A stretch of DNA of 64,000 bases. It comes from a phage. The stretch lies in the NCBI GenBank assembly GCA_014437165.1, contig GCA_014437165.1_4090.3. One strand, 5' to 3'. Each line of letters starts with the position of its first letter. The first letter of the stretch is position 1. Under the pieces are notes generated by a model. That model saw only the letters and a program-made list of their open reading frames with translations. It made no database searches and was not told where the DNA came from. Shown piece by piece: positions 486-44,772 of this stretch. A program made the position numbers and the translations under genes.

Positions 486-1127
486 ATGACTAAGCAAGAA
501 ATATTCAAAACTTTAATTGACATTTTGCGTCCATCAAAAACTCGTTGTGCGATGGAGTTTGATATTCCTTATGCTGAACGCGTAATCTTTCCACAAGTTA
601 AAGCTGCTGGACTTACTTTGCTTGGAATGGGGATGTACTCTGTAGTAGTTGAACATAAAAACTATCCTGGACGAGCATTTAAAGTAACCACTTCACGCTG
701 GGATGGTTTTCGTGCTTATGCAAAGTACTGCATTGAAAACGCAGGAACCAAGTTTCTTCCAGTGATCTACAGTGCCAACGAACAAGGAAACTTTGGATGG
801 TATGAGATGGACAAGTACTATCCTATAATTAAACAAAAAAATAATTATGATGACTTTGTTAGTACTAAAATTGGAGATTTGTATTCGTATGCACATGCTG
901 GTCAGTACGCAACTTCAGTGAATGATATGCGTGGAAATTCTGAAGAGATTGCTATTGCAACGGTCGCTGCTAACATCATGAAAGAGTTTCACGGGCGTTT
1001 TGTACCAGACATTCATTCAAGTAATGTAATGATGGATAAAGATGGGAATGTATTCATTACTGATCCTCTTTCGTGTGATGTGCGTAGAGAAATACCAATT
1101 ACTGAAGAAGATCCAGTTTTTTATTGA
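486..1127 (+). CDS. protein kinase-like fold protein (atypical)
   Basis: RBS AGAGGA then ATG 486; motifs GMGMYSVVV (Gly loop-like), AFKV, DIHSSNVM (catalytic-loop-like D.H..N), ITDP. Confidence 0.45.
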   Translation: MTKQEIFKTLIDILRPSKTRCAMEFDIPYAERVIFPQVKAAGLTLLGMGMYSVVVEHKNYPGRAFKVTTSRWDGFRAYAKYCIENAGTKFLPVIYSANEQGNFGWYEMDKYYPIIKQKNNYDDFVSTKIGDLYSYAHAGQYATSVNDMRGNSEEIAIATVAANIMKEFHGRFVPDIHSSNVMMDKDGNVFITDPLSCDVRREIPITEEDPVFY

Positions 1128-1188
1128 CAGAACTGATGTTCTGATGTATTCTTAATAAACCATAAAAATTGCGGTAAAGGATAAAATC

Positions 1189-1470
1189 ATGCGTTCATTT
1201 GAAAACTTAATAGGTAAGCATCTTTTATCTGAAATTGATGCAGACGTTAAAGAATTATCCAAATCAAAAAGTTACATTCATTTGGATGAACTGTTTGTTA
1301 AGTACGGTGAGATTGGTTTTAAATCATTATTTGTTTTTACTATGAAAGTACATAGTTTAAAGTACTTCGATTTGAGTGCTAAAGATGGTGAACCGAATCT
1401 ATATTACATGTATTACCTTAAGAACAAAGATGAAGCTAATACATTACTCTCTGAATATATATTGGGGTAA
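1189..1470 (+). CDS. hypothetical protein
   Basis: RBS AAAGGA upstream of ATG; 93-aa ORF. Confidence 0.5.
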   Translation: MRSFENLIGKHLLSEIDADVKELSKSKSYIHLDELFVKYGEIGFKSLFVFTMKVHSLKYFDLSAKDGEPNLYYMYYLKNKDEANTLLSEYILG

Positions 1471-1472
1471 AA

Positions 1473-1811
1473 ATGGAACAATATTTTGAATTAATAAACA
1501 AAGTATCATTTTATGTAGTATCTTTGGTTTGGGTGTATTATATGTTTTGCTACATTATTGCATTCTTCCGATACACTACTTTATATGAACGTATCTACTA
1601 TGATGCCCCAATTTCATTCTTGATGTTTTGTGCATGTACGTGGGGAATATTAGAAGTACTGATATGTGGGTATAGTACTGATGAATTAAATCTGGTATCG
1701 GTCTTGACTGGGTTTTCATTTGTTGTTATGATAGCTGCCGTTCCAGTATGGTTGTTCTTTGTACTAGTTCATCGCATTGATATATGGCGTTCTAATATCC
1801 CTGAAAAGTAA
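1473..1811 (+). CDS. small multi-pass membrane protein (paralog family A, 1 of 3)
   Basis: Mostly hydrophobic; C-terminal tail HRIDIWRSNIPEK shared in pattern with next two ORFs. Confidence 0.55.
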   Translation: MEQYFELINKVSFYVVSLVWVYYMFCYIIAFFRYTTLYERIYYDAPISFLMFCACTWGILEVLICGYSTDELNLVSVLTGFSFVVMIAAVPVWLFFVLVHRIDIWRSNIPEK

Positions 1812-1820
1812 GGATTGGTA

Positions 1821-2162
1821 ATGATTTATTACACTAACATGTTTGCCTATGCTGTTGCTTGCATTTACATTGTTTACTTCTTATTCGGTGGAGTACTGTG
1901 CTTCTTTAAGTACAAAACATTGTTCAACCGAATGTACCCAAATCATCCAATTGTAGTTGTACTTTTGATTCTTTCAGTTTCTCAAATAATCGTTGAAACT
2001 ACAATGGGTATCAGTAGTGTACATTATAGTTTTGGCACTATAGTAATTATTACTATGCTTATTGCATACATTTTAGTACTTGGATATGGTATCTTTGGTA
2101 ATATTGGTATGAAAATGTATCATCGAATTAAAACATTACGTGATAATCTACCGGAGCGTTGA
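1821..2162 (+). CDS. small multi-pass membrane protein (paralog family A, 2 of 3)
   Basis: ATG 1821 after AAGGA (track start 1815 is TTG); tail HRIKTLRDNLPER. Confidence 0.55.
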   Translation: MIYYTNMFAYAVACIYIVYFLFGGVLCFFKYKTLFNRMYPNHPIVVVLLILSVSQIIVETTMGISSVHYSFGTIVIITMLIAYILVLGYGIFGNIGMKMYHRIKTLRDNLPER

Positions 2163-2163
2163 T

Positions 2164-2508
2164 ATGTATAATTTGAACCTAATCTCATATATTATAACAA
2201 CACTGTTTACATTCTATGCCTTTGTTGGTATAATCCTACTGTACTTTAAATTTTATAAAGTGTTTAACCGTTTCTATCCTTCAATGGAGAATGAGTTTTT
2301 CTTTGTGTTGTACGTATGTTACACATTAATGGCTACATGTTTCACTGTAGCCGATGGTGTCATCGGCATTAAAACTGCTTCCCCAAATGGTAGTACGCTG
2401 GTTGCATTTATTCTTACTGGATTCCTTGCAACTTATATTGCCTTCATTACAACATGGTCAGTGGTTGAATTTCTCTTGCGACTACGAAAGAATATGCCGA
2501 ATCGATAG
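2164..2508 (+). CDS. small multi-pass membrane protein (paralog family A, 3 of 3)
   Basis: ATG 2164 immediately after the previous stop; tail LRLRKNMPNR. Confidence 0.55.
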   Translation: MYNLNLISYIITTLFTFYAFVGIILLYFKFYKVFNRFYPSMENEFFFVLYVCYTLMATCFTVADGVIGIKTASPNGSTLVAFILTGFLATYIAFITTWSVVEFLLRLRKNMPNR

Positions 2509-2517
2509 GAGACATAT

Positions 2518-2772
2518 ATGTTTGCGTTGCGTAATAAAAACACTAAAGAATTATTATGTATTGATACCGTATGGGATTGTGCGGGATCAACTACAGTTCT
2601 TGAAGAAGGAACTGGATATTGCGTGTTTGTTGTACATGATAGGAATGAACTCGAATTATTACTTGCTGAGTTCAATGCTGGTGGTAATCCTAACTGTACT
2701 GAATACCCTGAGATTATCAATCCAGCACCACCAGGCTCTTATGAAATTCTACAACTGTGGGAGTTGAAGTAA
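2518..2772 (+). CDS. hypothetical protein
   Basis: RBS TAGGAGA then ATG 2518; 84 aa. Confidence 0.5.
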   Translation: MFALRNKNTKELLCIDTVWDCAGSTTVLEEGTGYCVFVVHDRNELELLLAEFNAGGNPNCTEYPEIINPAPPGSYEILQLWELK

Positions 2773-43289: not shown

Positions 43290-43314
43290 GGCGGGATCAG
43301 TTCCCGCCTTTTTT
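43290..43314 (+). terminator. rho-independent terminator
   Basis: GGCGGGA-TCAG-TTCCCGCC + T6. Confidence 0.75.
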
Positions 43315-43329
43315 ATAGGATAAACTAAA

Positions 43330-43584
43330 ATGATTAAGGTACAACTATCTAAAGATAATATCTTGCGGGTACACTATAAAGCACCACAGAGAATCATCAC
43401 AAAGGCCGTACAGCTTGCTAATGAGTTTATTAATGGTAACCTATTACCAAGGAAGTTAAGCAACGGAAAACTGCGTGTAATCGATGTAGACACTAACAAC
43501 AGAATAGTAATTGAGAACACAGGAAAGATAAACCTATATGAACACCAACAATATAATAAGAAAATAAAACTAATATCACGTTGA
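43330..43584 (+). CDS. hypothetical protein
   Basis: RBS TAGGA; 84 aa; stop overlaps next -35. Confidence 0.55.
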   Translation: MIKVQLSKDNILRVHYKAPQRIITKAVQLANEFINGNLLPRKLSNGKLRVIDVDTNNRIVIENTGKINLYEHQQYNKKIKLISR

Positions 43585-43609
43585 CAGTACTCAATTGTTT
43601 TAGTATTAT
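43581..43609 (+). promoter_or_regulatory. sigma70-like promoter
   Basis: TTGACA 43581-43586, 17 nt, TATTAT 43604-43609. Confidence 0.55.
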
Positions 43610-43637
43610 GTACACATACCAACACGGGAGAAACAAA

Positions 43638-43856
43638 ATGAAATTATCTAAAATCGAAAAGAAAACTATTGATGAAGCAGTTAAGCACGGTTATACCTTT
43701 CGTAATGATTCACATTTTACCAATTTTCAACAAGGCCAAAGGACTATTAAAAAACTAATTGACAAAGGTTTATTAGTTAAAGTAGATAACGGTAACGGCA
43801 TTGAGTATCAGCCAACCCAAGACGCATTATCTTTAAAGAAATATGCAATTATCTAA
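43638..43856 (+). CDS. hypothetical protein
   Basis: ATG 43638 (MKLSKIEKK..) after GGGAGAAA. Confidence 0.6.
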   Translation: MKLSKIEKKTIDEAVKHGYTFRNDSHFTNFQQGQRTIKKLIDKGLLVKVDNGNGIEYQPTQDALSLKKYAII

Positions 43857-43888
43857 TTGACAGTACTCAAATGTTTTAGTACTATATG
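43857..43888 (+). promoter_or_regulatory. sigma70-like promoter (duplicate of 43581 cassette)
   Basis: TTGACAGTACTCAAaTGTTTTAGTACTAT; -35 43857-43862. Confidence 0.5.
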
Positions 43889-43913
43889 TACATACCAACA
43901 CGGGGAAAACAAA

Positions 43914-44156
43914 ATGATTACTTTAGAAAAACGTATCAAAGAAACTACATCGCTGGTGGAACTGTTAACAGTACTGAAATGCCGTACTACTCGGTTTAGT
44001 ACACCGGACTTTATTAATATGGTTGATGTTAACGGTCGTTATCGCATTGCAGTAGAACAAGGAACAGCGAAAGTATTCAGTACTAAAAACACTAAGGAAG
44101 TGATTCACGCTGTAAGTGTTAAAAAAGTAGTTGCCATTGATAGTAAAGTACTGTAA
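43914..44156 (+). CDS. hypothetical protein
   Basis: ATG 43914 (MITLEKRIKE..) after GGGGAAAA. Confidence 0.6.
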   Translation: MITLEKRIKETTSLVELLTVLKCRTTRFSTPDFINMVDVNGRYRIAVEQGTAKVFSTKNTKEVIHAVSVKKVVAIDSKVL

Positions 44157-44187
44157 GATAGTTTCATTAACTCAAGGAGAACATGCA

Positions 44188-44772
44188 ATGCGTAATTATA
44201 CTAAATTCATCCGTACCCTGTCAGAAATGGAAACCAACAAAGAGATCCTTTCAGCTTGTCGGTTAGCTGGTCTGGAGATCATCGGTGCGGGTTCTTCCCG
44301 TATTGTATTCGCTTTAAATGATCGGTTAGTGATCAAGGTCGCGAATTGTGATGCGGGTGTAGAACAAAATGAAACTGAATGTAAGGTATGGAATTTTTTA
44401 GATTATGACCGCCCTCAATTGAAACAGTACTTTGCAAAGGTGCATATGCATTTATGCGATCCTGATAATATGTTTATCGTTATGGATCGGTTGAGTACTG
44501 CAAGTAAAGGCAGTGTAAAGCACGTAAACGCGTGCAATGAATTAAAGTACAATATTAAACGTAATGCCATTGAACGCCAGCACCGCTTTGCTGATGCACT
44601 ACAACACGTTGATGATACATTATCAACACTAACGATAAGAGATATCAGAAAACAGAATATCGGCCAGGATCGTAATGGCCTTATTAAAGTACTTGATTAC
44701 GGTTTAACCCGCAATATCTGGAATCAGTACTATAAAAAGCGTGATGTAGAAGCAAGTAAGGTAACACGATAA
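44188..44772 (+). CDS. protein kinase-like protein (Ser/Thr kinase fold candidate)
   Basis: IGAGSSRIVF (Gly loop), VIKV (Lys), IRDIRKQNIG (RD.K..N catalytic loop), IKVLDYG (DFG-like); RBS AAGGAGA. Confidence 0.6.
   Translation: MRNYTKFIRTLSEMETNKEILSACRLAGLEIIGAGSSRIVFALNDRLVIKVANCDAGVEQNETECKVWNFLDYDRPQLKQYFAKVHMHLCDPDNMFIVMDRLSTASKGSVKHVNACNELKYNIKRNAIERQHRFADALQHVDDTLSTLTIRDIRKQNIGQDRNGLIKVLDYGLTRNIWNQYYKKRDVEASKVTR

Follow-up and report, generated by a model that had tools for sequence, protein, structure and literature searches.

Introduction

The kinase of bacteriophage T7, gp0.7 (T7K), is an early, hyperpromiscuous enzyme of anti-defence and host takeover (PMC13645617). Recent work showed that it disarms many bacterial defences through mass phosphorylation, which prompts one to ask how widespread kinases are among phages. 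Here we describe three protein-kinase-like genes, called A, B and C, in a 64,000-nucleotide stretch of phage DNA (contig GCA_014437165.1_4090.3 of NCBI GenBank assembly GCA_014437165.1), which was analysed at its full length and is referred to as the window. While A was already known and C is loosely annotated as a kinase in scattered records and one paper, B belongs to a very large family of 'function unknown' that appears to carry the kinase core at its bare minimum. We consider it likely that the three genes encode minimal protein-kinase-like enzymes from two lineages, that B is native and not truncated, and that their phosphotransfer would serve host takeover or anti-defence early in infection.

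How do these proteins compare with described kinases? Like A, T7K has a short kinase core that ends soon after the metal-binding Asp, but it continues into a C-terminal DNA-binding shut-off domain that A lacks, and it carries a DPV motif where A has DPL. The type III effector kinases OspG and NleH provide a precedent for active kinases without Hanks subdomains VIII-XI (PMC12756638), and A, B and C are likewise kinase cores without these subdomains, although they have no detectable sequence relationship to OspG or NleH. The solved chain of OspG, moreover, has 169 residues and continues with C-terminal helices past the DFG position, where B has a single residue; OspG needs host E2~ubiquitin, which bacteria lack, for full activity; and OspG and NleH are secreted effectors, whereas the proteins studied here are encoded by a phage. 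HopBF1, RIO, Bud32 and Ark1 are at least 50 residues longer than B, retain C-lobe helices and differ in their signature motifs and substrates (HSP90, rRNA or ribosome, and KEOPS or tRNA). Finally, B and C are clear members of PHROG 4301, which is itself labelled 'unknown function'.

Results

Predicted fold and conservation of gene B

The three open reading frames (ORFs) proposed as kinase-like in an initial annotation of the window, and all the motifs quoted for them, are present as described (Table 1), and profile, structure and literature evidence back the assignment. B, with the motifs KGATRTV, AIK, SDAKPEN and LDYGD, matches phrog_4301 at 8e-44. Although built from an alignment of only 14 sequences, its AlphaFold2 model is confident and compact, with a predicted local distance difference test score (pLDDT) of 90.2 and a predicted template modelling score of 0.80. 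The modelled order of elements, beta1-3, alphaC, beta4-5, alphaE, a short helix and a beta-hairpin, corresponds to a kinase N-lobe followed by the start of a C-lobe. The model thereby agrees with the bilobal kinase fold, in which a five-stranded N-lobe that includes alphaC is followed by a hinge and then by alphaE, the catalytic loop and the strand pair of DFG. When this model was used in two independent structure searches, kinases were returned almost exclusively; the matches in one include the small atypical kinases RIO1/2, Bud32, Ark1, OspG and HopBF1, and those in the other, by Foldseek, TTK and Legionella Lpg2603. A non-kinase fold, named in the initial annotation as the outcome that would speak against it, was not among the folds matched by the B model.

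Conservation was assessed over 120 sequences with 28-56% identity to B. K21 and E41 are present in all 120, D120 in 119, and G7, R10, P23, G34, N38 and G110 in 118 each, while 102 retain the catalytic-loop Lys. Two co-varying forms of the catalytic loop exist, D-x-K-x-x-N in 59 sequences including B, and E-x-K-x-x-S in 35. The canonical loop of Ser/Thr kinases is R-D-L-K-P-E-N, which S-D-A-K-P-E-N of B almost matches. That the invariant residues of the family fall exactly on kinase catalytic positions argues for an active site under selection.

Table 1. Positions of the kinase-like genes, their motifs and associated elements in the window.
Feature	Position	Strand	Basis
Putative sigma-70-like promoter upstream of A, TTGACT-18-TATGAT, extended -10 TG	428..457	+	consensus match
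Gene A, T7 gp0.7-type (T7K) kinase domain, 213 amino acids (aa)	486..1127	+	PHROG matches, BLASTP, homologue conservation
A, G-loop G47/G49	624-632	+	homologue alignment
A, Lys66	681-683	+	homologue alignment
A, catalytic loop D175-x-H-x-x-N180	1008-1025	+	homologue alignment
A, metal-binding D193-P194	1062-1067	+	homologue alignment
Gene B, minimal kinase-like protein, 123 aa, Hanks subdomains I-VII only	4271..4642	+	PHROG, model, conservation
B, G7	4289-4291	+	family alignment
B, Lys21	4331-4333	+	family alignment
B, Glu41	4391-4393	+	family alignment
B, D103-A-K-P-E-N108	4577-4594	+	family alignment
B, D120-Y-G122	4628-4636	+	family alignment
B, stop TAA	4640-4642	+	sequence; protein end ...K-L-D-Y-G-D
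Independent gene of PHROG 8563, 89 aa, not part of the kinase	4644..4913	+	full-length phrog_8563 match, 7e-25
Candidate sigma-70-like promoter of C, TTGCCA-17-TAAGAT	44131..44159	+	weak consensus match, 9/12
Gene C, kinase-like protein, 194 aa, N-terminal helical extension, 22-aa tail past DYG	44188..44772	+	PHROG, profiles
C, G33/G35	44284-44292	+	family alignment
C, Lys50	44335-44337	+	family alignment
C, Glu64	44377-44379	+	family alignment
C, D152...N157	44641-44658	+	family alignment
C, D170-Y-G172	44695-44703	+	family alignment
Intrinsic-terminator-like hairpin directly 3' of C, 12-bp stem	44784..44811	+	terminator annotated at same place in G17

Native end of gene B

The stop of B stands one codon past DYG, and the next ATG follows 2 nt on in the +1 frame, an arrangement from which B had been suspected to be truncated or one half of a split gene. 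The downstream ORF would then be the detached C-terminal part of a kinase or a +1 frameshift partner, and a fusion of the two, at about 213 aa, would come near the lengths of A and C. Such an origin is extremely improbable. Homologues retrieved by word-indexed search are all 118-127 aa long down to 45% identity, and every one ends in D-[YFA]-G-x-stop. An exhaustive search with a hidden Markov model (HMM) of the family against 1.84 billion cluster representatives, clustered at 50% identity, found 1,206 clusters at E<=1e-3, of which 639 reach E<=1e-10. The best 150 representatives have a median length of 123 aa, and in 122 of them (81%) the chain stops no more than two residues from the position after DxG; the extensions of the few longer members have no Pfam match.

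The downstream gene, in turn, is a complete member of PHROG 8563 with its own GGAG Shine-Dalgarno sequence, located 6 nt before the ATG within the last codons of B. The kinase-family HMMs show no similarity to it, and its paralogue at 2518-2772 (+), also of PHROG 8563, adjoins no kinase gene. Both proteins begin with M-x-A-L-x-N-K, and PHROG 8563 is of unknown function. The two ORFs are likewise not one gene in related phages: no PHROG 8563-like gene lies beside distant B homologues, some of which stand alone on their strand or are flanked by spacers of 270-400 nt. Taken together, the shared family end, which extends to homologues of only 28% identity, the PHROG 8563 neighbour and the distant contexts rule out a split gene or frameshift fusion. 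Judged from these comparisons, the length of about 120 aa and the D-Y-G-x end of B are the native, strongly conserved architecture of a large, free-standing accessory family.

Gene C and its relation to gene B

C carries the motifs GAGSSRIVF, VIKV, RDIRKQN and LDYG and matches phrog_4301 at 1e-41. G33, G35, K50, E64, D152, D170 and G172 are invariant in its family, and N157 is nearly so. Among PDB sequences the family profile matches MKK4/MKK7 (2e-4 to 6e-4), in an alignment that spans the G-loop to DFG. As a single sequence, C reaches E 0.0024 and 17.8 bits against Pfam Pkinase, below the gathering cut-off of 31.7, and such a sub-threshold match is found in 7 of 12 family members. With PADLOC, the models of the kinase PD-T4-6 match weakly (E 2e-4), and C is the only one of the three to be matched. 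Several GenBank records label the C orthologue a protein kinase. The genome paper of the phage Sharanji names, besides gene A, 'another protein kinase' of unknown function, which by gene order is probably C.

Pairwise, B and C are barely alike. Aligned by hhalign, however, the B profile (from the 120 diverse sequences) and the C family match with 94.5% probability (E 8e-8) over 112 columns from the G-loop to DYG, and they share signatures beyond generic kinase residues, namely G-x-[ST]-R-x-V in the G-loop and N-x-x-E in alphaC. On this evidence B and C are distant paralogues in one uncharacterised phage superfamily, PHROG 4301. Its division into types of about 120 and about 195 aa, as well as its assignment to kinases, derives from the present analysis and from scattered GenBank labels.

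A stands apart. The comparison of its profile with that of B gave no significant similarity, the alignment with C is in register over all motifs but not significant (E 0.008), and neither B nor C significantly matches the T7 gp0.7 family, PHROG 2828. NCBIfam has no family for A, B or C, and Pfam no model for the B or C families. HMMs of the three families found no additional member among 369 stop-to-stop ORFs of the window. The initial view of paralogues in one early region thus holds in part: B and C are distant relatives, but A belongs to the T7K lineage; A and B lie 3 kb apart, but C is 40 kb distant, at a site that belongs to the direct terminal repeat in related genomes. G17 has two copies of C, other related records annotate the site as terminal repeat, and the repeat of Sharanji measures 20,668 bp (Sharanji genome paper).

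As for timing, early expression would follow from sigma-70-like promoters. With its promoter-like site and strong hairpin terminator, C looks like a self-contained unit; the stem of the hairpin holds the -35 box of the next promoter, 44791-44819. Just upstream of C, a near-identical 23-nt promoter-like element, TTGACAGTACTCAA[T/A]TGTTTTAG, occurs at 43581-43603 and at 43857-43879 with similar leaders, each copy preceding one of two consecutive small genes; two matches compare with 0.02 expected by chance.

Gene A, a T7 kinase homologue

A, with the motifs LGMGMYS, AFKV, PDIHSSN and ITDP, matches phrog_15752 at 5e-92, whose label has the same wording as the 121Q annotation, and phrog_2828, the T7 gp0.7 family, at 8e-17. 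BLASTP aligns it with T7 gp0.7 itself at E 6e-9 and 27% identity, colinear over LGxGxxS, the FKV lysine, D-x-H-S-x-N and I-T-D-P. G47, G49, K66, D175, H177, N180, D193 and P194 are invariant across 18 homologues of 40-64% identity, and D73 is probably the acidic residue of alphaC. As the A-family profile finds nothing significant among PDB sequences, the kinase assignment of A rests on its homology to T7K; A has no match to Pkinase (PF00069) in Pfam, and its homologues carry PF27024.

The chain of A stops 20 residues past D193, while that of T7 gp0.7 runs for about 140 more. Asp-Pro is invariant in the jumbophage clade and is followed by Leu, as in A (L195), or Phe, in agreement with the published finding that the Val of the T7 Asp-Pro-Val motif is not conserved in jumbophage homologues (PMC13645617). 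T7K homologues of the jumbophage G17 without the shut-off domain have been published as well (PMC13645617), and its matches identify A as this previously known T7-kinase homologue. The 121Q record starts A at ATG 453 (224 aa), and a 224-aa homologue probably points to other such records. Homologues are mostly 213 aa long, starting with MTK at the equivalent of 486; their lengths and a promoter-like site that ends at 457 favour ATG 486, suggesting that the true A protein starts there and has 213 aa. This site overlaps a terminator-like hairpin. At both 417-457 and 44784-44819, the -35 box TTGACT of the following sigma-70-like promoter is part of the stem of a terminator-like GC hairpin (GGGTTGACTTCGGTCAGCC-TTTTTT and AAAGGGATTGACTCCGGTCAGTCCCTTT), so that terminator and promoter seem to be combined in one compact cassette between early genes.

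Distribution of the B family

A tblastn search located a B-type gene in 118 phage records, which represent at least 16 host genera; nearly all are annotated as 'hypothetical protein', and two have kinase labels. The homologue in Shewanella phage SXP01 is labelled 'putative virion structural protein'. The family spans jumbo, T4-like, N4-like and FelixO1-like phages, siphoviruses and a lambdoid prophage, and the settings of its genes vary. In the lambdoid Salmonella prophage, the gene lies between an Rz-like lysis gene and terminase Nu1 with spacers of 270-400 nt (locus 4001-4372), a moron-type site. In a FelixO1-like phage it is alone on its strand between DNA ligase and an HNH endonuclease, and in the T4-like Escherichia phage JS10 only 1 nt separates its end from the gene of RNA ligase 2, rnlB (locus 1477-2854). 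The B-type gene of JS10 occupies the position of the 24.2 region of T4, and its place next to rnlB could hint at a connection to RNA repair. One homologue is found four genes downstream of a Tad2-like (anti-Thoeris) gene (locus 2159-4381), and others near terminase, among tail genes, among nrd genes or after lysozyme; further homologues occur in an N4-like phage, Pseudomonas siphoviruses and an Erwinia jumbo phage.

Among 12 B-homologue loci there is no recurrent neighbour that could act as a conserved cis partner supplying a C-lobe, and a DNA search of complete E. coli genomes for a B-type prophage variant gave no match. Our literature search found no description of a phage kinase family of about 120 aa. 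Neither the searchable literature nor the annotation of Pfam, NCBIfam and PHROG thus appears to describe the B-type kinase-core family.

Discussion

What can be said about the mechanism of these proteins? All three retain Hanks subdomains I-VII but lack VIII-XI, that is, the activation segment with APE, alphaF and the GHI helices; past the metal-binding Asp, 3 residues remain in B, 24 in C and 20 in A. They keep the ATP-binding N-lobe and the catalytic core, with G-loop, beta3 Lys, alphaC acid, D-x-x-x-x-N and metal-binding Asp, and dispense with the substrate-binding half. Each protein is expected to hold Mg-ATP in the space that separates the N-lobe from what is left of the C-lobe. In B, Lys21 would pair with Glu41, Asp103 would act as base, and Asn108 and Asp120 would be placed on the metals; the phosphate would then be passed to host or phage targets early in infection. 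Because an activation loop and a substrate platform are missing, the active site should be constitutively open, and it should therefore have either broad specificity, like T7K, or partner-dependent activation, like OspG. B would represent the minimal form, promiscuous alone or completed by a partner in trans, and is, as far as we know, the most extreme minimal kinase. For all three, a role in host takeover or anti-defence is likely. A bolder proposal, which we advance only tentatively, is that B-type proteins, whose chain stops one residue past the DFG glycine, are the smallest self-sufficient protein-kinase catalytic units known, widespread among phages and prophages in at least 1,200 clusters at 50% identity and constitutively open, and that they disarm defences either by phosphorylating many host proteins or after being switched on by a host partner.

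Several observations weigh against an active kinase in B or C, or against its early use. Compared with PDB sequences, the B profile stays below threshold, with TTK as its best match at E 0.4; no member of the B or C family reaches the Pfam gathering score, and B has no Pkinase match at all. The AlphaFold2 model of C, from a 12-sequence alignment, is of low confidence (pLDDT 48). A 194-aa entry of BFVD (H6X4G3), probably the RaK2 orthologue of C, resembles the B model in structure. B is broken in Escherichia phage CMSTMSU (MH494197, 165911-166278), with fragments of 84 and 38 aa in BFVD, and N-terminally shortened to 102 aa in Salmonella phage SD-1_S14; it is therefore dispensable in some relatives. 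The promoter consensus matches behind the proposed early expression are not enriched over shuffles.

Could the kinase motifs of B and C then be coincidental, set in an unrelated fold? The sub-threshold scores would fit this explanation, but we give it very little credence: a confident B model led two structure searches to kinases, the C profile matches MAP2Ks in register, and the family's invariant residues coincide with catalytic positions. Because of the family-profile, T7 gp0.7, PDB and structure matches, the motifs of A, B and C are not chance matches. A kinase fold could still serve a non-catalytic nucleotide binder, B and possibly C being a pseudokinase-like regulator, or a decoy or sponge for ATP-derived immune signals. 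The missing substrate-binding lobe of B points in this direction, as do its small, single-domain, accessory nature, reminiscent of known anti-defence sponges, the homologue close to a Tad2-like gene, and the replacement of the catalytic-loop Asp and Asn by Glu and Ser in about a third of the family. Yet the Lys-Glu pair and the metal-binding Asp hardly vary at all, most sequences retain the catalytic-loop Lys, and the change from D/N to E/S is coordinated and conservative, acidic and polar residues being preserved, as expected of a maintained active site. We thus regard loss of catalysis as unlikely.

Catalysis, on the other hand, could be directed at non-protein substrates, such as RNA or polynucleotide ends, nucleotides or small molecules. 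The structural neighbours of the B model include the archaeal RNA kinases Ark1/TkArkI and aminoglycoside and viomycin kinases, the JS10 homologue directly precedes rnlB, and another homologue lies among ribonucleotide reductase genes. However, small-molecule kinases have a catalytic loop of the form H-x-D-x-x-x-x-N, while D-x-K-P-E-N of B is the form of Ser/Thr protein kinases; the contexts of B homologues are heterogeneous, and the link to rnlB was found only once. Such a substrate range for B-type proteins is accordingly unlikely, and protein phosphotransfer by all three gene products is the reading we prefer.

If B-type proteins are active, the lower size limit of the protein-kinase fold would have to be redefined, a simple system would be at hand to ask what the C-lobe is for, and the candidate phosphorylation effectors of phages would be greatly expanded. 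If they are inactive ATP binders, they would constitute a new class of viral pseudokinase. Should they indeed be minimal self-sufficient units, the T7K-type A, B and the 194-aa C would amount to three layers of phosphorylation-based takeover.

Genomic setting and other features of the window

Judged by its sequence, the window comes from an Asteriusvirus jumbo phage of E. coli: over its first 8 kb it shares 99.2% identity with Escherichia phages vB_EcoM_G17 and Sharanji and about 99% with 121Q, all three being Asteriusvirus jumbo myoviruses of 348-386 kb. Small plus-strand genes form two blocks, at 1-12 kb and 28-64 kb, around a minus-strand block at 12-28 kb of large paralogous genes. Ser, Thr and Tyr make up 17-19% of the small plus-strand gene products versus 26% in the minus-strand block, a comparison confounded by the RCC1-like propeller proteins that make up this block; depletion of these residues as a kinase signature was therefore dropped.

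Within the minus-strand block, 12455-24071 holds a tandem array of at least seven similar-sized ORFs of 380-443 aa. Each of the four that were compared matches PHROG 4219 (1e-59 to 2e-105), a family of RCC1-like beta-propellers labelled 'regulator of chromosome condensation', and these proteins are unusually rich in Ser and Thr, at about 10% each. On the plus strand between A and B, 1473-1811, 1815-2162 and 2140-2508 encode three consecutive small hydrophobic proteins of 112-122 aa, the first of which matches PHROG 19285 (unknown function). They have in common the pattern F-x-Y-x-T-L-x-x-R-x-Y and a C-terminal R-x-N-x-P-E/N-R, and look like tandem paralogous membrane proteins. Finally, 121Q, CRJP21 and other close relatives align only to about 6485-6492, where a 372-aa ORF starts at 6490 (about 6490-7608). 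Labelled endonuclease or homing endonuclease in some relatives, it probably marks the insertion site of a mobile endonuclease.

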